Positions 1-8,151 are shown, numbered from the stretch's first letter. The stretch: DNA of 24,040 nt from Candidatus Caldarchaeales archaeon (GCA_032249095.1 JAVVGN010000023.1:1-24040); one strand, 5' to 3'. A program made the numbers and translations. Notes: generated from the sequence alone by a model not told the origin.

Positions 1-1
1 C

Positions 2-220
2 TTGCCGGAGTGGGCTTCGTGGCGTAGAACCAAGAACTATTTCGGAATGTGGAGGGGAGATGAGAAGACACGCTTCCACAGGTCGAAGACTGCTAGACAG
101 GCCCTTGAAAGACTTACGATGAGCATCAAAGGCTATGCAAGAGGAAAAGAACTCAAAGAAGTCCTAAAGACCATCTGGATAACATTGAAGGCCCAGAAGG
201 CCGGGCCGGTTCCAGCCTGA
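2..220 (+). CDS. 3' end (truncated by the window edge) of a mobile-element ORF; the tail resembles the C-terminus of IS110-family transposases
   Basis: The open frame runs to the window edge. The C-terminal '...LKEVLKTIWITLKAQKAG' resembles the ARKLL-x-IIW-x-MLK tail typical of IS110-family proteins. It is followed by a non-coding tail that recurs at 16059-16270. Confidence 0.4.
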   Translation: MPEWASWRRTKNYFGMWRGDEKTRFHRSKTARQALERLTMSIKGYARGKELKEVLKTIWITLKAQKAGPVPA

Positions 221-392
221 CGGAGAAAAGACCCAGGAGGCTGGAGCGGCCGGCTAATATCACCTAACCACCCCCTAGAGAGCGTCTCATAGGGGTGGTA
301 CGGCCTCAAACATACACCTTCCGGTCTTCTGGGTTTCTCTAGTGTCAGGCTGGAGAAAGCTCGACCCCTCCCCCCTCTTTCCTTCCCCTCGT
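163..392 (+). repeat. Type-A non-coding tail of the IS110-like element, copy 1; homologous to 16059-16270
   Basis: Direct sequence match begins at cctaaag..accatctggataacattgaag and runs through ggccgggccggttccagcctgacggagaaaagacccaggaggct. Both copies have a local hairpin (ccaccccct..aggggtgg here, ccaccc..gggtg in copy 2) and end in a C/T tract (365-390). Confidence 0.75.
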
Positions 393-413
393 TACCCTCT
401 TCTGAACTCATCT

Positions 414-869
414 CTAAATTCCGTATCTTAGGTGTATGATTATTGATGGTATTGTTGCTAGGGCTTTGTATGTTTATGCTAGCCTCTCATACCTTATGGT
501 TATTCTTCTGAATGATTTTAGCCATCCGAAGAACCTCTCTACAGCAGACCCCATCCTCCTGTATAGCTCAGTATTGTATGGTCTAGGCTTCCTACCATTC
601 CTGGGATTCACGGGTATGTTAGGCTCTATATCCATGGATTCTAAGCCCCTCCTTATGGATTCAGTGTCGTATGCCGCGTCTGCGTAGAGCTGCCCAGGCT
701 TTCCATCTAATCCCTCCACAAGCTCTAGAAGCTTCTTGGAGTCATGTTCGTTCCCAGGACCTATAGCTATACTTAGAGGCATAGAATCCCTGTCTACGCA
801 TACATGTATCTTAGTCCCCTTCCTATGCTTGAAGCCATCGTATCCTACCAGCTCAGGGTATTTAAAGTC
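414..869 (-). pseudogene. IS5/IS4-superfamily DDE transposase, C-terminal two-thirds only, with an in-frame TAA
   Basis: Translation gives ELVGYDGFKHRKGTKIHVCVDRDSMPLSIAIGPGNEHDSKK...LYADAAYDTESIRRGL...RSAVERFFGWLKSFRRITIRYERLA. After a TAA at 474-476 the same frame continues as TYKALATIPSIIIHLRYGI. The N-terminal about 100 aa are missing; the frame is cut at 870 by an inverted-repeat-bearing insertion. Confidence 0.7.
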
Positions 870-1420
870 TTATCCGGACACTACCTGTTTAGTAGTTGTT
901 GGTGTCCCTTCAATAGGACCTATAGGCCACTATCATCCTCCGCATGACTAGGAAGTCTTCCAGTAACTCTTCTGAACCATCTCTCCTAAATCCTCATTAG
1001 GGCCTTTATGTCGCCCCTCGCGTCGTCTTGGGAGCTTTAGCTCCATGCGCATCTTCTCAATCAACGTAAGCCTCCTAAGATAGTATACCTCTACTCCTCT
1101 CCTCACAAGCTCTAGCGCGCCGTCCATATAATGGACAGGCAATGTATCTACAAATAGCTTGTCTCGGGGCCCGACCGATCTCGCTGAAGCCATCTACGTG
1201 CCTGAAAGAGACTCCATCAGCTGTATACGTTATCTTGAAGCCCCCGCCATTCCTAGACCTCCTTGAACATCGGCGTCGTACCTCACCACTCAGCCCACCC
1301 CCTCATGAGTAACTCTAGCAAACTCGCTAATACCTACTCAAGGCTCCCGCTCAGTGAGATCTAACATATTCTGTGGGGACAAGATAGGCTGATAAGATTT
1401 CAGCTAATAAACCTAGGCCC
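870..1420 (-). mobile_element. Internally deleted, frameshifted fragment of the orfA + IS110-like element
   Basis: The motif ttatccggacactac at 870-884 is preceded by gtatttaaagtc, the same arrangement as at 19525-19551. The region 1300-1400 aligns at nucleotide level with the orfA 3' end and the orfA/tnp junction of 23150-23260 (gagcgggagc..tagcgag..gtgag). Confidence 0.5.
948..1193 (-). pseudogene. IS110-like (DEDD) transposase N-terminal fragment
   Basis: 'KLFVDTLPVHY...VEVYYLRRLTLIEKMRMELKLPRRREGRHKGPNEDLGEMV' parallels 'TIVVSDSYPRKL...FLRLRDLKKLSEERKNNGLRKTDENDVKAL' of the ORF at 23239. The upstream part (to about 1295) is readable only with a frameshift. Confidence 0.5.
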
Positions 1421-1421
1421 A

Positions 1422-1886
1422 TTACCTCGTGGGTGTTTGCAACCTATATCTAAAGGACGCGTCTCCTGTGCTTACTGTGATTTCGTAGGTCGCGCCCTTC
1501 TCCCACGCCAAGCCAACGTATATCGCTCCGACAGAATTTCCCTCTATCCTACATGGATCCGATGTGCAATAGTACGTGCCGGCTGGTGGAAATAAGGCGT
1601 TAACTGAGCTGTTACCCGCGAGGCCTGTGCCGTAAGATGACATCTTAAGAGGTATTCCCTTATAATGTGACCCGTTGATGATGACGGCCTTCACCTCGAT
1701 GCTTTTTGTACTGGGGTTATAGAGGCTGAGGGTGAGGGTTGATTTATCGTTGCTGAAGTTGTATCCCACGAGATGTAACTCATCTGGCTCGGTGTGAGGA
1801 TATATGAGCGAGATTGTTATTGCAGATATAACTGCGATTATCGGTATTATGACCAGCAGCCTAGGTAGCTCTCTCACGGTCTTCAC
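1422..1886 (-). CDS. Hypothetical membrane-anchored (N-terminal TM) extracytoplasmic protein; last gene of the NrfCD/cupredoxin operon
   Basis: 154-aa ORF with an N-terminal hydrophobic anchor (LLVIIPIIAVISAITISLIY). It overlaps the upstream gene by 26 nt, which suggests translational coupling. Confidence 0.7.
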   Translation of the reverse strand: MKTVRELPRLLVIIPIIAVISAITISLIYPHTEPDELHLVGYNFSNDKSTLTLSLYNPSTKSIEVKAVIINGSHYKGIPLKMSSYGTGLAGNSSVNALFPPAGTYYCTSDPCRIEGNSVGAIYVGLAWEKGATYEITVSTGDASFRYRLQTPTR

Positions 1887-2796
1887 CCATCCTCCTAATC
1901 TGGAGAAGAGATCTTACGGTAAATAGAATAACACCCCAAGCAGTCATCACAACCGATGAAACCAACACTATTAGAACGGTGTTGGCCTCGATAGGGACGC
2001 CCACAAGCCTTGGGTCGGGCCAGTAGTTCTGGGAGACAATGTTTGTATGTGGAAGCTCGAGCGGTGGGAAAGCCATGGTACTCGTCAACACCGTCGTCGC
2101 GTTAGCCGCGGACAGTCCTCCGCCGCCGTCAAACACCGTGTGAACGACATATTTCCCAGCGCTTGGCGGCTTATAGAGAAGGGATGCATTTCCAGCATGG
2201 TCTGTTACGGCGGAGCCTATAACTAGGGGGGCGAAGGATGTTTCCACAAGGAATCGTATTATTATTCCTTCAACGGGTTCGTCGTTCTCGGTTAAAACCA
2301 CGGCTCCGACCAGATAGCCCGACGGGGTAGAGCTTATCCATGGACTTATCTTTACATTCGTAAGCTTCTTGGATGTGGGACGCACATCAAGCACCCCGTC
2401 CTGAAGGTTCTCATGCCCCCTGCATCTTAGGGTGCATCTTATCTTGAAGGATCCAGGCTGGTTGACCACCAGCGTGGCGTCTTGGCTCGGCTCTTCACGG
2501 CTCAGCCTCACTGAAATTCCGTATTCAGGTATCTCGATCCTATGGGGATTGTCTGTCTGTAAATCAGTGTCGCCGTAAACGAATCTTAGCTTCACTGTAT
2601 CTCCCTGCTCAACAGTGAGTCGGAGGTCTCTAGAACCATTAAATCCGTCTCTTGACACAATTATGAGAAATTCCTTCATGGATGGCCTGTCATCATTTTG
2701 CCCGACCCTTATTTCAGCAGCGGCCACGTCCCCAAAGACTAGCGGTAAGTTTAGGGACATCAGCCCTATGATGAGCAGGATTGGTATAATCCTCAC
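1861..2796 (-). CDS. Secreted, C-terminally anchored protein with a cupredoxin-like domain and an Ig-like beta-sandwich domain
   Basis: It has a signal peptide (MRIIPILLIIGLMSLNLPLVFG) and cupredoxin-like motifs: 'LTVEQGDTVKLRF', 'NPHRIEIPEYGI' and 'GSFKIRCTLRCRGHENLQDGVLDV'. A C-terminal TM helix is present. The gene overlaps its neighbours by 4 nt upstream and 26 nt downstream. Confidence 0.75.
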   Translation of the reverse strand: MRIIPILLIIGLMSLNLPLVFGDVAAAEIRVGQNDDRPSMKEFLIIVSRDGFNGSRDLRLTVEQGDTVKLRFVYGDTDLQTDNPHRIEIPEYGISVRLSREEPSQDATLVVNQPGSFKIRCTLRCRGHENLQDGVLDVRPTSKKLTNVKISPWISSTPSGYLVGAVVLTENDEPVEGIIIRFLVETSFAPLVIGSAVTDHAGNASLLYKPPSAGKYVVHTVFDGGGGLSAANATTVLTSTMAFPPLELPHTNIVSQNYWPDPRLVGVPIEANTVLIVLVSSVVMTAWGVILFTVRSLLQIRRMGEDRERAT

Positions 2797-3437
2797 GGTA
2801 CCATCAACCTCGCCCTCTCTAGAACTCTCCTGAGATACTCAATTCCAGCATTAGCGAAAACTGTAATTTTATAGCTGTTGTACCAGAGCTCCATCTTTGA
2901 CTGTCGCGGGACGTGGATCAATAATCCCCCATCCCCTACATGTATCGCCTCCGAGCCTGGCGGGGGATTCCCTGGCGGACCTAGAGGATACTCTAGCTTC
3001 TGAAAAATTACCATAACCTTGACAGTCTCCGTATACAGTCCTAGGTCCTCTAGACTTGCGTCGTCTATGAGGATCGTTAACATCCTTGCTTGAGGGTTGT
3101 AGAACAGCCCTACCACATCCAGTCCAAAACCTTTTAACCCATCAGGTTTCAGCCCCAGACCCCTCACATCTCTTAAGCTCGCGGGCGCCCCGAGTACTGC
3201 TAGGCTCCGGCGATAACCTCTTGAGTTTTCATAGATGAGCTGGCTGAGGTACCTGCCTCCAAGCCATCCTATGGTTAAGCCGGCGAGGGAGCTGGCGATT
3301 ACACGTAGGTAGGCTCTCCTCTCCGTCGGCCGCTCCTCCCCCAGCGGTTGCTTTGGAACTATAAGCCTCAGTATTTTAGGGGCAGTTTCAAGCTCCTCAG
3401 CCCTCAACTCATGCCCTACCGTCTCCCAGATTGACAC
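2793..3437 (-). CDS. Hypothetical protein with one TM segment (operon member)
   Basis: The ORF is open to 3509, but that stretch overlaps nrfD. A GTG at 3435-3437 overlaps the nrfD stop by 1 nt (TAGTG), which is typical coupling. The TM segment is 'AYLRVIASSLAGLTIGWLGG'. Confidence 0.6.
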   Translation of the reverse strand: MSIWETVGHELRAEELETAPKILRLIVPKQPLGEERPTERRAYLRVIASSLAGLTIGWLGGRYLSQLIYENSRGYRRSLAVLGAPASLRDVRGLGLKPDGLKGFGLDVVGLFYNPQARMLTILIDDASLEDLGLYTETVKVMVIFQKLEYPLGPPGNPPPGSEAIHVGDGGLLIHVPRQSKMELWYNSYKITVFANAGIEYLRRVLERARLMVP

Positions 3438-4687
3438 TATTGGGAAAATTTTGCAAACACCACGTATATGAGCATGAACAGGGCGAAGGCACCTGACATG
3501 ATGGACCACTCGACCCAGGTCGGCCTATATAACCCCCATGGATAAGGTAACTGTGGGACAGCAAGGCTTGGGACGACTATATTCCATCTCTCAAGCCACA
3601 TCCCAATGTTTACCAGAGCCGCCGCCGCGACATATCCACGTGTGTTACGCGTTGCTGGGATGGCTAAGATGAGGGCCGGTATTATAAGACCGCCCAAGAT
3701 CTGGGTCCAGAACGTTGATGAGTAGGGCCCCCAGAAGAGAGCGGTTAACCACCTACCCTCCATCTCCGTCGTCCCTAAGTATTTATAGCCTGTAACGAGG
3801 AACTCGTTTATCGTAAAGTATATGACCACTAGATCAAGTGCGAGAAGTAGTTTAGCCATAGCGTTGATGTGTTTGTCAGTGGTAGCCCAGCCGATCCCTA
3901 GAATATGTTTTGCCAAAACCATTATCAACAAGACCGTCGCCACCCCTGATAGTACTGCCCCAGCTACGAAATAGGGGCCGAAGATCGTGCTGTTCCAGCC
4001 CACCCTTAACGTCATCGCAAAATCCCATGAAACCACCGTATGCACAGTTATTACCATGAAGACTATGAGGTAGGTAAGAAGACGTATCAATCTTTCGAGC
4101 ATTTCCCACTGTTTGGGTGTGCCTGACCATCCTAGCGACAGAGCATTGTACAGCCGATACTGTATGGATCCTTTGTTCTGCATCGAGTCTCGGAGCAATG
4201 CTATATCGGGTATCATGGGGATGTAGAGGTAGAGGGTTGAGGTTACGAAGTATGTGCCTATGCATATCAGGTCCCATAGGAGTGGTGACTGGATGCGGCC
4301 GAACAAGAATAGGTTAAGAACCCTCTCAGGCCTACCTAAGTCTATCAACGGCATCATCATGGCTACAAGCAGGCTTGCGAATGTCACGGCCTCGGCCATC
4401 CTAGTAACGGGTCGCCGCCACTCGTTTCCGGTCAATCTTAGTATGGCCGTGATCAGCGCTCCGATATGGCTTATCCCTATGAAGAATACGAAGTTTATGA
4501 TATATATGCCCCATATGACGGCCCTCATACCGGTGACCCCTAAACCTGTGTTAAGCTGGTGGAGCCATGCATACGCGCCCCATATCACTATGGAGGCGAG
4601 CGAGGTCACCGTTAGGTAGAACCAGAACCCGCGTCTCCTAATGGGTGCGACTAACGTCTCGGCTTTTACGTACGGCTCCACACTCAC
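3437..4687 (-). CDS. nrfD: NrfD/PsrC-family polytopic membrane quinone-interacting subunit
   Basis: 416 aa with about 10 predicted TM helices. The N-terminal region 'GMRAVIWGIYIINFVFFIGISHIGALITAILRL..W' matches the NrfD/PsrC/ActC family pattern. It overlaps the FeS-subunit gene by 4 nt. Confidence 0.9.
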   Translation of the reverse strand: MSVEPYVKAETLVAPIRRRGFWFYLTVTSLASIVIWGAYAWLHQLNTGLGVTGMRAVIWGIYIINFVFFIGISHIGALITAILRLTGNEWRRPVTRMAEAVTFASLLVAMMMPLIDLGRPERVLNLFLFGRIQSPLLWDLICIGTYFVTSTLYLYIPMIPDIALLRDSMQNKGSIQYRLYNALSLGWSGTPKQWEMLERLIRLLTYLIVFMVITVHTVVSWDFAMTLRVGWNSTIFGPYFVAGAVLSGVATVLLIMVLAKHILGIGWATTDKHINAMAKLLLALDLVVIYFTINEFLVTGYKYLGTTEMEGRWLTALFWGPYSSTFWTQILGGLIIPALILAIPATRNTRGYVAAAALVNIGMWLERWNIVVPSLAVPQLPYPWGLYRPTWVEWSIMSGAFALFMLIYVVFAKFSQ

Positions 4688-5490
4688 ACTGACCCCCCTC
4701 TTGGTGGGAGATAGTATACACGTGGCTCTGTCCCAAGCTCCTCTTTCAGCCTATATACACCTCTACCTCTTAGAAGCTCAGAAAGCTTCACCGTCTCATC
4801 ACCGTTTGAGACCACATCCTCAGCCGCATCACCAAAGAAAAGCGCCCTATGTCCGGCGGCTGTGCATGCCTCAACGCATGCAGGAAGCCTGCCTTCCTTA
4901 ATCCTGTGCCTACACCATATGCATTTTTCAACAACTCCCCGTCTCTTCGGAATATTGTGGTCTGGGGAGTATGGTATATTCCTCTCCTCTTCTAATACGG
5001 GCGGATCAAACCAGTTGAAGAACCTCCTCTCATATGGGCATGCTGTAATGCATATCCTGCAGCCTATGCATCTCTCCTGGTCTACAAGGACGATCTCGTC
5101 CTCGGAATAGAAAGTAGCACCAACAGGACATACCTTCGCACATGGGGCGTTCTGGCAGTTCTGACAAAGAACTGGGAGGAAGTGATCACCTATCTTGAAG
5201 ACCTCTATCCATGGCTGCCTACCTCCATATCCATGCTCACCCCATGAGGGAGGGACCCTCATCTCCTCCTGACATGCCTCAACGCATTTCATACAGCCGT
5301 TGCATCTATCGGTATCTATAACGAAGACCCAATGCCTCTGCCTTCCACTCAGCGACCACTCGGTTTGGAGGGCTGTCTTAGCGGGAGGCTGGGGGCCTTC
5401 TATTGAGGCTGAGGCAACCGCCCCTACTACTGCCGATAGACCTAGAGTTAGGGCGTCACGTCTTGTGAGACGCCGCCTGTCCTGACTCGT
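4684..5490 (-). CDS. nrfC: Tat-exported 4Fe-4S cluster subunit (NrfC/PsrB/DmsB-like); probable non-canonical ACG start
   Basis: Cys clusters are CNGCMKCVEAC, CQNCQNAPCAKVCP, CIGCRICITACP and CIWCRHRI..CVEAC. The frame is open to 5502 and encodes (T)SQDRRRLTRRDALTLGLSAVVGAVA, a twin-arginine signal. There is no in-frame ATG/GTG/TTG upstream of the first Cys cluster. An ACG at 5488-5490 lies 8 nt after a GAGGTG motif. Confidence 0.85.
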   Translation of the reverse strand, partial: TSQDRRRLTRRDALTLGLSAVVGAVASASIEGPQPPAKTALQTEWSLSGRQRHWVFVIDTDRCNGCMKCVEACQEEMRVPPSWGEHGYGGRQPWIEVFKIGDHFLPVLCQNCQNAPCAKVCPVGATFYSEDEIVLVDQERCIGCRICITACPYERRFFNWFDPPVLEEERNIPYSPDHNIPKRRGVVEKCIWCRHRIKEGRLPACVEACTAAGHRALFFGDAAEDVVSNGDETVKLSELLRGRGVYRLKEELGTEPRVYYLPPRGGSV

Positions 5491-5551
5491 TGTATAAGCA
5501 CCTCAGTTATTAAAAAGAAAAAGAGGATGTTGTCCTCAAGGCCCCTCAATT

Positions 5552-6091
5552 TTACTCGATGACGATGAGATACCCCACCATGTACTCATGGTCTGGATCG
5601 CAATCACCCTTCTCGTGATCGTGGGGAGTACCGCACTCAAACTTGAAGACACCGGCCTTGTCAGCTACGAAGGTTACTGTTCTTGTCCTCGCAGCTGGGT
5701 CGGGGGCCTCATCCCTACCGGGAATCCTGCCCGTATCAATGTTATAACCTTCGATTACTAAAGAGTGGGCGTGGCGTCGGGGATTCTGAACAGTTAGCTC
5801 CACAGTATCTCCCTTCTTTACAATGATTACCGGTGGCTCCCATCTATGCATTTCAGGCCCAAGTTTTTCCTCTTCATCAACCTCTACAATGGCTTTAGCC
5901 TCACCCATCTGTAGTACTATCTTCACCGTAGCAGGTTCCAGCCCCTTACCAGGAGGACCAGGGGGACCTTGAGGACCAGCTGGACCGGGAGGACCCTGTG
6001 GGCCTGGGATGACAAAGTTGACAGCAACGGCTATTACGGCCAGTACTATGGCGGCGACAGCTAACGTCAACATAGTTCTACTATTCACCAC
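5552..6091 (-). CDS. Membrane-anchored cupredoxin-like protein with a collagen-like Gly-X-Y linker
   Basis: An N-terminal TM segment is followed by seven GXY triplets (GPQGPPGPAGPQGPPGPPGKG). Cupredoxin-like motifs follow: 'KKGDTVELTVQN', 'HAHSLVIEGYNI' and 'GVFKFECGTPHDH...HEYMVGYLIV'. The start is GTG, with GAGGTGA upstream. Confidence 0.8.
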   Translation of the reverse strand: MVNSRTMLTLAVAAIVLAVIAVAVNFVIPGPQGPPGPAGPQGPPGPPGKGLEPATVKIVLQMGEAKAIVEVDEEEKLGPEMHRWEPPVIIVKKGDTVELTVQNPRRHAHSLVIEGYNIDTGRIPGRDEAPDPAARTRTVTFVADKAGVFKFECGTPHDHEKGDCDPDHEYMVGYLIVIE

Positions 6092-6250
6092 ATTTCATCA
6101 CCTCATACCTCACGCATAAAATGAGTTTAGCCCTCAACATAGCTGTTCTAGGGGAAGTGGATTTAGAGTTGAAAGCAGAACAGTATTTCCTGAGCAAAGG
6201 AATATTTCTGACTAAACCCTAATAAGTCTAGGGGGTTTAGCTTAATTAGG
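6092..6250. promoter_or_regulatory. Divergent intergenic control region between the cupredoxin/NrfCD operon and the ArsR-RDD gene
   Basis: A TATA-like cataaaatg (6115-6123, read on the minus strand) lies about 28 nt from the GTG at 6091. A near-palindrome aaaccct-N8-tagggggttt (6214-6238) sits just upstream of the TTG at 6251. Confidence 0.35.
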
Positions 6251-6991
6251 TTGCAGTCCGAGAGAGACGCGGTTGGAGATTTCTTCAAAACATTGAGCCA
6301 TCCTGTTAGGAGGGATATGATAAGGCTCCTCTATGAGCGGATTGACCTCTCCTACACAGAGCTTCTAAACGAGCTGAAGATAGATGAGGGGCAACTTAAC
6401 TTCCACCTCAGAGCCATGAAAGTCCTGCTCGACCACAGCGGTGATGGCAGATATAAGCTAAACAACATTGGCAAGGCAGCCCACCACATGATAAAAGACA
6501 TCACTAGGATCCTTGGCGCTGCAGATTATCTTGTAAAGCCAAAGATAAGTGGGGGATTGTTCCTAAGACTTGTTGTAGCCTTTCTACTGGATGTTGCTGT
6601 CTTCTTCGTGGCCACAGGCGCCTTCTTAGACGAGAATGTTTGGCATCTAGCTATGCTCCACTGGGCTGACGTGAGCAAGCATATGACCGGGATAATTGAG
6701 GCCTATGCACACATCTTTTTCGCTACCTTCATCGTCTTCACCCTTCTGGAGGCGTACAAGGGCCAGACACTCGGCAAATACCTGATGGGCATAAGGGTGG
6801 TGGCTGTTACGGGGCGTAGGCTTACCATCGTGGAGTCAGGGATAAGGAATGCTGGAAAGGTCTTCCTACTGCCGATAGACCTGATCGTCGGCATAATCTT
6901 CCTACGCAGTCAGGGATATGTTAGATTTTTCGACTACTACACTAGATGTATGGTGGAATCGATAAAAAATAGTGTTCCAAGCCAAATATAG
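6251..6991 (+). CDS. ArsR-family winged-helix regulator fused to a C-terminal RDD-family membrane domain
   Basis: The N-terminus 'FFKTLSHPVRRDMIRLLYE..LSYTELLNELKIDEGQLNFHLRAM' is an ArsR/SmtB-type wHTH. The C-terminus has TM helices and 'GQTLGKYLMGIRVV', the RDD-domain hallmark. Confidence 0.85.
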   Translation: MQSERDAVGDFFKTLSHPVRRDMIRLLYERIDLSYTELLNELKIDEGQLNFHLRAMKVLLDHSGDGRYKLNNIGKAAHHMIKDITRILGAADYLVKPKISGGLFLRLVVAFLLDVAVFFVATGAFLDENVWHLAMLHWADVSKHMTGIIEAYAHIFFATFIVFTLLEAYKGQTLGKYLMGIRVVAVTGRRLTIVESGIRNAGKVFLLPIDLIVGIIFLRSQGYVRFFDYYTRCMVESIKNSVPSQI

Positions 6992-7728: not shown

Positions 7729-8151
7729 GTGTGGGATTTGGATCGTTTCGAAGAGGCGAGGAGGTGGGCGGCTCAGTCTCGGAGAGATTTAAAAGCGGCC
7801 GAAGACAGCTTCATGTCTAAAAATTATGAATGGAGTTGCTTTCAGGCACAGCAAGCTGCTGAGAAAGCTGTTAAAGCCCTACTATATCTTCATGGTATGA
7901 GCAGCTGGGGTCACAGCGTAACTGAATTACTTGGCTATGTGAGGGATGTCGAGAGAGTGGGTGAGGATCTATACGTTGCGGGACGTGAGTTAGATAGACA
8001 CTACATCCCATCCAGATATCCCAATGCCTTTGAGTCGGGGTATCCTGGCATGTATTACGATGAGTCAACAGCGATGCGAGCGTTAGAGTCAGGTAAAAAA
8101 ATAATCGACTGGGTGAGAGAATGCTTGAAGAAAGCAGGACTAGAATTATAG
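7729..8151 (+). CDS. HEPN-domain protein (toxin component of a HEPN/MNT pair)
   Basis: The helical 'AEDSFMSKNYEWSCFQAQQAAEKAVKALLYLHG' and the Rx4H motif 'RELDRHY' are present. It overlaps the nucleotidyltransferase gene by 31 nt. Confidence 0.85.
   Translation: MWDLDRFEEARRWAAQSRRDLKAAEDSFMSKNYEWSCFQAQQAAEKAVKALLYLHGMSSWGHSVTELLGYVRDVERVGEDLYVAGRELDRHYIPSRYPNAFESGYPGMYYDESTAMRALESGKKIIDWVRECLKKAGLEL

Follow-up and report, generated by a model that had tools for sequence, protein, structure and literature searches.

What does an NrfC/NrfD-type pair of respiratory subunits do when no catalytic subunit accompanies it? The question is raised by a gene cluster at positions 1422-6091 of a 24,040-nt stretch of DNA from a Candidatus Caldarchaeales archaeon (GCA_032249095.1, JAVVGN010000023.1:1-24040; the whole stretch is called the window, and coordinates count from its first letter). 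A first-pass annotation described six co-directional genes here, two of them for cupredoxin-like proteins, and proposed a quinol:cupredoxin (or cupredoxin:quinone) electron-transfer complex. Because the anatomy of the cluster, the absence of other partners, its synteny and its conserved ligands all hold, that role is the best available reading, although the copy in the window may not make a working complex. With moderate confidence, we propose a haem-free, molybdopterin-free NrfC/NrfD-type quinol:cupredoxin complex on the outer membrane face, resembling Alternative Complex III (ACIII). The module is a complex of the NrfCD/ACIII kind in a new form. It is widespread and so far undescribed; no account of it turned up in a literature search that paired NrfD with cupredoxin, blue copper or plastocyanin in archaea.

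The cluster and its divergent neighbour comprise the following features (ORF, open reading frame; aa, amino acids; FeS, iron-sulfur; Tat, twin-arginine translocation; Ig, immunoglobulin; HTH, helix-turn-helix).

5552..6091, minus strand: P1, membrane-tethered cupredoxin, 179 aa (ORF, profile and structure model)
about 4684..5490, minus strand: P2, FeS protein with Tat signal, ~266 aa (ORF and profiles)
3437..4687, minus strand: P3, NrfD-family membrane subunit, 416 aa, closest to ActC
3435..3452, minus strand: frameshift site, an A4T4 tract lacking one T
2793..3437, minus strand: P4, detached C-terminal part of an NrfD fusion
1861..2796, minus strand: P5, signal peptide, cupredoxin domain, Big_1-type Ig domain and C-terminal transmembrane helix
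1422..1886, minus strand: P6, small anchored protein with an N-terminal transmembrane helix and a beta-rich ectodomain
6251..6991, plus strand: divergent HTH-RDD gene, with an ArsR-like HTH (DUF7347/HTH_20) and an RDD membrane domain

Six minus-strand ORFs thus stand at exact coordinates, overlapping by 4 nt (P2/P3), 1 nt (P3/P4), 4 nt (P4/P5) and 26 nt (P5/P6), but the ancestral count is five, with P3 and P4 originally one gene. Most of the earlier descriptions agree with our results. P1 is a membrane-anchored cupredoxin-like protein by profile, fold model and transmembrane helix; P2 is a Tat-exported four-cluster FeS protein by its twin-arginine motif and Cys content; P3 matches the NrfD family, as expected of an NrfD-like quinone-site membrane protein; P5 shows the cupredoxin-like and Ig-like domains of a secreted protein in its model and in family matches to Cupredoxin_1 and Big_1; and P6, listed as another anchored protein, has an N-terminal transmembrane helix. 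The separate "unknown single-TM protein" does not survive: P4 is the C-terminal part of the NrfD fusion, split off by a 1-nt deletion.

The partners expected of such a pair are missing, as had been noted. The CxxCH haem motif is absent from the six proteins and from every window ORF of at least 100 aa, profile scans of the operon and its annotated neighbours detected nothing of the molybdopterin-subunit type, and none of the operon ORFs is DsrM-, DsrK- or DsrJ-like. The first-pass annotation had named a catalytic subunit always encoded just outside the operon as the finding that would overturn it. At seven archaeal loci (archaeon HR01 and contigs L005/6, L007, L094, L097/8, L008 and L009) neither a MopB gene nor a CxxCH gene lies within 10 kb.

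P1 and P5 carry the predicted copper sites. P1 consists of a transmembrane helix (residues 10-28), a collagen-like GPxGPxG linker (~30-48; GPQGPPGPAGPQGPPGPPG) and a C-terminal cupredoxin domain. Profile scans with P1 alone gave weak matches to Cupredoxin_1, nitrosocyanin and the NosZ C-terminal domain. Relatives at E < 1e-10 form 64 clusters among 1.8 billion representative proteins searched; in an alignment of 47 of these, H109, C153, C164 and H168 are invariant and residue 171 is Met, Gln or Ile (M171 in the window). Compared with solved proteins, the family profile matches the extra N-terminal cupredoxin domain of Hyphomicrobium nitrite reductase (E 2e-20), nitrosocyanin (E 4e-13) and the NosZ CuA domain (E 1e-8). 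The AlphaFold2 (AF2) model of P1 has a predicted local distance difference test (pLDDT) score of 93, and its top Foldseek match is nitrosocyanin, with a template modelling (TM) score of 0.75 on the target. Nitrosocyanin, the closest fold, has one Cys and a Glu ligand; P1 has two Cys.

P5 alone yields weak Big_1 matches in Pfam, and its profile search found 43 relatives, many with Pfam Cupredoxin_1 plus Big_1 or Big_3_5. H85, C121, C125 and H128 are invariant in this family (n=40), and Q132 is nearly so. Its AF2 model (pLDDT 81) has beta-sandwiches at 40-139 and 148-239 and a transmembrane helix at 269-310, and its best fold matches are copper nitrite reductases. Comparison of the P1 and P5 cupredoxin profiles shows the two domains to be homologous (hhalign probability 98.8%, E 5e-17) and aligns their His, Cys, Cys, His and Met/Gln columns, and each protein contains exactly two Cys, all invariant in their families. 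On this alignment, P1 and P5 are paralogous cupredoxins.

Both proteins have the Greek-key beta-sandwich and the His...Cys...His...Met/Gln positions of cupredoxins, which here are predicted copper ligands. The earlier expectation of copper ligands is borne out in that P1 and P5 keep a conserved metal-ligand set, but the set is His/Cys/Cys/His(+Met/Gln) and not the blue-copper His/Cys/His/Met. Because two Cys, two His and an axial Met/Gln are conserved, the predicted site looks CuA-like, not classic type 1 blue copper. The same set occurs in the CuA domains of NosZ and cytochrome oxidase subunit II, whereas loop spacing differs: the CuA motif reads C-x3-C-x3-H-x2-M, P5 C-x3-C-x2-H-x3-Q and P1 C-x10-C-x3-H-x2-M. 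The Cys-to-Gln span of P5, 11 residues, equals the Cys-to-Met span of CuA. We infer the copper occupancy and nuclearity of both sites from sequence.

P3 falls clearly within the NrfD/PsrC family. It scores above the gathering cut-off for Pfam NrfD PF03916 (E 4e-31, 109 bits against 25.8) and aligns over its full length with ActC (6f0k_C, E 3e-64), the closest solved protein, with three more ACIII structures at E 1e-54 to 1e-57. Calisto and Pereira list Ser164, Asp169, Asp253 and His139 as quinol-site residues of ActC (PMC8076601). Mapped on the ActC alignment, the first three correspond to S134, D139 and D222 of P3, so that these P-side quinol-site residues are kept, and His139 corresponds to D116; an Asp at this position also occurs in DsrP and QrcD. 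In 22 relatives, neither S134 nor D139 varies.

Nearly all close homologues of P3 are 630-650 aa long and consist of P3 and P4 fused. The HR01 fused protein (81% identical) reads VFAKLFPIVSIWETVGHE across the break point of the window, where the window itself has VFAKFSQ* in one frame and FPIVSIWETVGHE continuing in another. The T run at 3445-3448 in the A4T4 tract has one T fewer than in sister strains and relatives, and a 98%-identical sister strain with one T more has P3 and P4 fused; the split is thus due to a 1-nt deletion in this run. The stop TAG (3439-3437) overlaps a GTG restart (3437-3435) as TAGTG, and both halves could still be made from the window copy. P4 has a Tat-like RR motif, a hydrophobic anchor helix and an outward-facing DUF4367-type domain, the Pfam family being matched by 7/12 members; neither P4 nor P6 of the window has a Pfam match of its own. 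No conserved Cys or His was found in the P4 family alignment or in P6, and P6 is present only in the closer archaeal relatives. P4 was also considered as an ActD homologue and rejected, since its family profile has no significant match in the PDB.

P2, which contains the sequence RLTRRDALTLGLSAVVGAVASAS, has the Tat signal TRRDAL, which is kept in HR01, L005, L007, L008, L009 and L097, and 16 Cys in four ferredoxin-type motifs, as for four [4Fe-4S] clusters. Its domains are of the ferredoxin type only. In NCBIfam, P2 comes closest to DsrO (E 1e-54; 185 bits, cut-off 200); TtrB, ArrB, DmsB and NrfC score far below their cut-offs, and residues 795-964 of ActB (6f0k_B) match at E 7e-27. The start of the gene is unusual. 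Upstream of the Tat motif, from the stop TGA (5505-5503) to ATG 5292, there is no in-frame ATG, GTG or TTG, and ATG 5292, the start of the mechanical ORF, falls inside the first Cys motif. Gene callers accordingly shorten P2 to 192-202 aa, and the Tat signal and half of the first cluster motif are lost. An AGG in the window aligns with the HR01 ATG ahead of P2. L097/L098, whose operon is intact and whose P5 is 84% identical to that of the window, likewise lacks a canonical P2 start, and the codon changes between window and L097 upstream of the RR motif (GAC/GAT, AGG/AGA) are synonymous. A Shine-Dalgarno-like GAGGTG (5504-5499) overlaps the upstream stop, with ACG (5490-5488) 8 nt on, a spacing common to the two species (window 5488-5504, L097 5294-5310). 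The dN/dS (ratio of nonsynonymous to synonymous substitution rates) of P2 between window and L097 is 0.12 over the stop-to-stop frame including the upstream stretch. Because the intact relative shares the feature and the changes ahead of the RR motif are synonymous, a start-codon-loss pseudogene was rejected and P2 probably initiates at the non-canonical ACG 5490-5488.

Conservation and known relatives

The order cupredoxin(s)-FeS-NrfD(fused)-P5-P6 recurs in archaeon HR01, in the metagenome contigs L005 and L006, and in contigs L094 and L097/L098. A 2.4-Mb Bathyarchaeota contig (L007) keeps the cluster order, its two small upstream genes having no cupredoxin match. The core of FeS, NrfD and P5 without P4 or P6 is found in L008 and L009, a groundwater thaumarchaeote and another archaeon, and in many Chloroflexota and a Symbiobacterium metagenome-assembled genome (MAG). 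The conservation called for in the first-pass annotation is therefore present: the cluster is kept without a catalytic partner in at least seven independent archaeal lineages. Of all partners of the FeS-NrfD pair, P5 is conserved most widely. Its head varies, with a cytochrome c domain added in front (L022) or replacing the cupredoxin (L035, L018), and in Thermoplasmata-type archaea a DOMON-like (putative haem b) domain takes the cupredoxin's place. Because the redox head is interchangeable while the Ig domain and transmembrane helix persist, this position appears to mark an electron-transfer module, and such swaps show the evolutionary rewiring of these modules.

ACIII (ActABCDEF) is the nearest known system. 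P3 resembles ActC, including the quinol-site Ser/Asp/Asp, and P2 the FeS half of ActB; both complexes are outward-facing and Tat-dependent. Chloroflexus ACIII reduces the cupredoxin auracyanin. In contrast to ACIII, the operon has no pentahaem ActA, monohaem ActE, MopB-like ActB1 (the fused protein is ~1000 aa) or second NrfD-like ActF; the copper domains of P5 and P1 stand in the place of the haem subunits, and the NrfD subunit has a DUF4367 extension. Membership in ACIII proper was rejected on the lack of haem subunits, ActB1 and ActF, the operon having a single NrfD gene.

Other NrfD-containing systems share parts of the module. P2 is nearest to DsrO and P3 has DsrP among its best matches, but DsrM, DsrK, DsrJ and cytochromes are missing, and membership in DsrMKJOP was rejected on scores (DsrO 185 bits against 200, DsrP 100 against 350) and on the lack of DsrMKJ-like genes. 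P3 also matches QrcD of QrcABCD; here QrcA, QrcB and cytochromes are missing and the scores lie below family cut-offs. A conventional molybdoenzyme of the Psr/Ttr/Dms/Arr kind was rejected because no catalytic subunit occurs in the window or within ≤10 kb at the seven archaeal loci. NosGH, the NrfCD-type pair of clade II nos clusters, is a putative quinol dehydrogenase without a molybdenum (Mo) subunit that is thought to feed a CuA-containing copper enzyme. By this description the FeS and NrfD pair here is similar, and the P1 profile matches the CuA domain of NosZ, but no NosZ, NosC1/C2, NosB or other nos gene is nearby and the copper domains are small carrier-type proteins.

The neighbourhoods of the orthologous clusters differ between lineages. 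The divergent HTH-RDD gene, a candidate regulator, is common to the window, HR01 and L097, the L094 neighbour scoring for RDD only, and ArsR-type HTH genes adjoin the operon in several archaea. L094, a 1.55-Mb Caldarchaeales-type contig, has a copper-homeostasis locus (1-3761) 3-8 kb away on the upstream side of the operon, with genes for an HMA P-type ATPase, a TRASH-domain regulator and proteins of the YHS and Cupredoxin_1 kinds; two other loci have cation-efflux, ZIP and Nramp genes in their vicinity. In Chloroflexota and the Symbiobacterium MAG, a HisKA_3 sensor kinase (HAMP, with or without Cache/GAF/PAS) precedes FeS-NrfD-P5 (L095 5338-7515, L096 5503-7680, L035, L018, L038, L075, L070), with a GerE-type response regulator where called, which implies dedicated signal-dependent control of these clusters. 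Large ORFs beside Chloroflexota clusters were considered as possible oxidases and rejected: they are HisKA_3 sensor kinases, TPR proteins, other unrelated proteins and one EB_dh/DOMON haem-b-type protein.

Two large secreted or anchored protein families accompany the core in Thaumarchaeota, other archaea and Chloroflexota (L005 14350-17575; L008 12371-18428; L009 5959-8792; L095 11046-13496; L096 10979-13449). Members of one measure ~430-477 aa; those of the other, at ~515-620 aa, contain TIG-like repeats duplicated within the protein and share a conserved YDNA.xGxACGF motif. Both families are absent near the window, HR01, L094 and L007. As hidden catalytic subunits these ~470-aa and 520-620-aa neighbours were rejected, having no cofactor motifs and no informative Pfam matches.

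A different cluster type surrounds the P3 relatives of other bacteria (Ignavibacteria, Bacteroidota, Calditrichota and others), which are 45-50% identical to P3: here a pentahaem protein, an ~820-aa protein, a 227-aa FeS protein, NrfD and then a tetrahaem protein follow one another (L023, L031, L037, L066-L068, L078-L082, L088, L089). It looks like an ACIII relative with the ActB halves as separate genes.

Strain variation at the locus

Public contigs were placed on the window and the variants rebuilt from assembled contigs only, giving four types at ~99% identity.

window type (X1): 1-nt deletion splitting P3/P4
X5: nonsense codon in P2 at 4938, GGA to TGA
X11: 2-nt deletion in P2, W368* in P3, 1-nt deletion in P5
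X17 (= L090-L093): 20-nt deletion in P2, Q193* in P3, 1-nt deletion in P5

Because each of the four has at least one frame-disrupting change, the operon is probably being lost in this species; at least one hot-spring population can thus dispense with the module. Of the four, the window copy has suffered least, the P3/P4 split being its only lesion. Disruptive differences between window and L090 are derived on the L090 side, including changes at family-invariant positions (G237S, W368C), and the window's own derived substitutions are conservative. Across all six ORFs, dN/dS against a related species is 0.10-0.40, which shows long-term purifying selection; in this species constraint has recently been relaxed.

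Transcription of the operon continues: an X17-type contig from a metatranscriptome covers 1200-6113, the whole operon, and leaves the divergent intergenic region 6114-6262 uncovered. The contig end at 6113 carries adapter sequence and a TATA-like TTTTAT (6121-6116) predicts a nearly leaderless start at ~6091, so no transcription start is assigned.

Electron route and competing readings

In the proposed route, the outward-facing (P-side) site of the ActC-like P3 would oxidise quinol, and electrons would run through the four [4Fe-4S] clusters of the Tat-exported P2. P5, as the complex-bound cupredoxin-Ig-transmembrane subunit, would take them at its copper centre. P1, the paralogous cupredoxin swinging on its collagen-like tether, would receive them from P5 and pass them on to a terminal acceptor, for which a haem-copper oxidase is the most plausible candidate. 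The copper proteins would replace the haem subunits ActA and ActE of ACIII, and P4, with its DUF4367 domain, and P6 would be non-redox accessory subunits. We infer the subunit contacts, the direction of electron flow and the acceptor.

The related aigarchaeote Calditenuis aerorheumensis is reported to have a highly transcribed haem-copper oxidase and no typical complex III (Beam et al., PMC4681859), and membrane blue copper proteins have been proposed there as carriers to the oxidase (PMC4681859). The cluster is a concrete, testable candidate for the link between quinol and haem-copper oxidase in aerobic Aigarchaeota. More tentatively, it could be a widespread copper-only counterpart of ACIII in bc1-less archaea (Caldarchaeales, Bathyarchaeia, non-ammonia-oxidising Thaumarchaeota and Thermoplasmatota) and Chloroflexota, its FeS-NrfD core connected to CuA-like cupredoxins of a new class, of which one is an integral part of the complex and the other sits on a collagen-like tether. 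If true, this would be the "missing complex III" of aerobic Aigarchaeota. It would also extend CuA-like ligand sets to a cupredoxin class beyond oxidases and N2O reductase, and add copper proteins to the partners of the NrfD family, for which a review of NrfD-type complexes names Mo, nickel-iron or haem proteins and no copper protein (PMC8076601).

Several points weigh against a quinol:cupredoxin complex. The family is known from genes and models only, and the direction of electron flow is not readable from sequence. [4Fe-4S] clusters usually have low potentials, the copper occupancy is a prediction, and the invariant Cys pair of P1 and P5 could form a disulfide instead of binding copper. A terminal oxidase gene adjoins the cluster in none of the examined loci. 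P2 lacks a canonical start codon, window and L090 differ by 18 nonsynonymous and 7 synonymous changes, and with a frame-disrupting change in every strain variant the window copy may be non-functional.

Reverse flow, with P1 and P5 taking electrons from an outside donor and quinone being reduced as in a Qrc-like cupredoxin:quinone oxidoreductase, is unlikely but has some points in its favour. NrfD-family modules run both ways, and Qrc reduces menaquinone with periplasmic electrons (PMC8076601); D116 of P3 corresponds to the Asp of DsrP and QrcD; the long P1 tether could reach outward; and the Chloroflexota sensor kinases and the ArsR-like or metal-linked archaeal neighbours suggest that an outside signal controls the genes. 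Possible donors are Fe(II), Cu(I) or a reduced sulfur compound, and the NrfD-type subunit might couple the reaction to the proton gradient. However, such copper centres are usually of high potential, which would make quinone reduction uphill, the cluster contains no gene for a donor-oxidising enzyme, and ActC belongs to a quinol oxidase. Improbable in our view is that P2 and P3 serve a conventional Psr/Ttr/Dms-type molybdoenzyme whose catalytic subunit is encoded elsewhere in the genome. P2 does score against the TtrB, ArrB, DmsB and NrfC models, homologues are labelled "molybdoenzyme membrane anchor subunit" in sources, and the 45-50% identical bacterial NrfD proteins adjoin an ~820-aa ORF (likened to MopB by size alone) and multihaem cytochromes. 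Yet the NCBIfam matches are far below cut-offs, DsrO just below; the FeS proteins beside the ~820-aa ORFs are a separate class of ~227 aa; a MopB gene lies within 10 kb at no archaeal locus; and the conserved partner is P5 with its interchangeable redox domain.

That same interchangeability, with cytochrome c or a DOMON-like domain in P5, argues for generic electron transfer and against copper or metal handling, such as a quinol-driven reaction that reduces or oxidises copper ions on the outside of the cell. The cop-type locus 3-8 kb from the L094 operon, the ArsR-type neighbours in several archaea and the cation-efflux, ZIP and Nramp genes near two loci would fit such a function, but the linkage is loose and inconsistent between loci, and the conservation of the ActC-like quinol site fits energy metabolism; we give metal handling little credence. 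A stronger competitor, only somewhat less probable than a quinol:cupredoxin complex, is that the operon in the window is a non-functional remnant making no working complex. The frame lesions in all four types (the window split, X5, X11 and X17/L090), the 18:7 ratio between two strains, and the insertion sequence (IS) fragments and split TnpB nearby favour it. On the other side, the TAGTG overlap leaves both halves of the NrfD fusion translatable and some relatives lack the P4 part altogether; the substitutions derived in the window are conservative; the non-canonical P2 start occurs also in a relative with an intact operon, with synonymous change upstream of the RR motif; and the operon is transcribed.

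Other features of the window

Directly downstream of the operon lie a truncated DDE_Tnp_1 transposase fragment of 102 aa (474-782, minus strand) and a small ORF without assigned family (948-1193, minus strand), an arrangement also present in sister-strain contigs. An IS200/IS605-type TnpB gene (OrfB_IS605 with a Cas12f1-like TNB domain; 11472-12689, plus strand) appears split into adjacent ORFs at 11472-11939 and 11964-12689, which suggests another broken mobile-element gene.

A large inverted duplication (18673-19800 and 22583-23223) surrounds RtcA-like and PadR-like genes. Its arms comprise segments of 252 nt (90% complementary), 246 nt (81%) and 64 nt (86%), and each arm encodes a related protein of 115-127 aa without known family. 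An overlapping HEPN/nucleotidyltransferase pair of the toxin-antitoxin type occupies 7729-8531 on the plus strand; HR01 and L097 have a comparable pair close to their operons.

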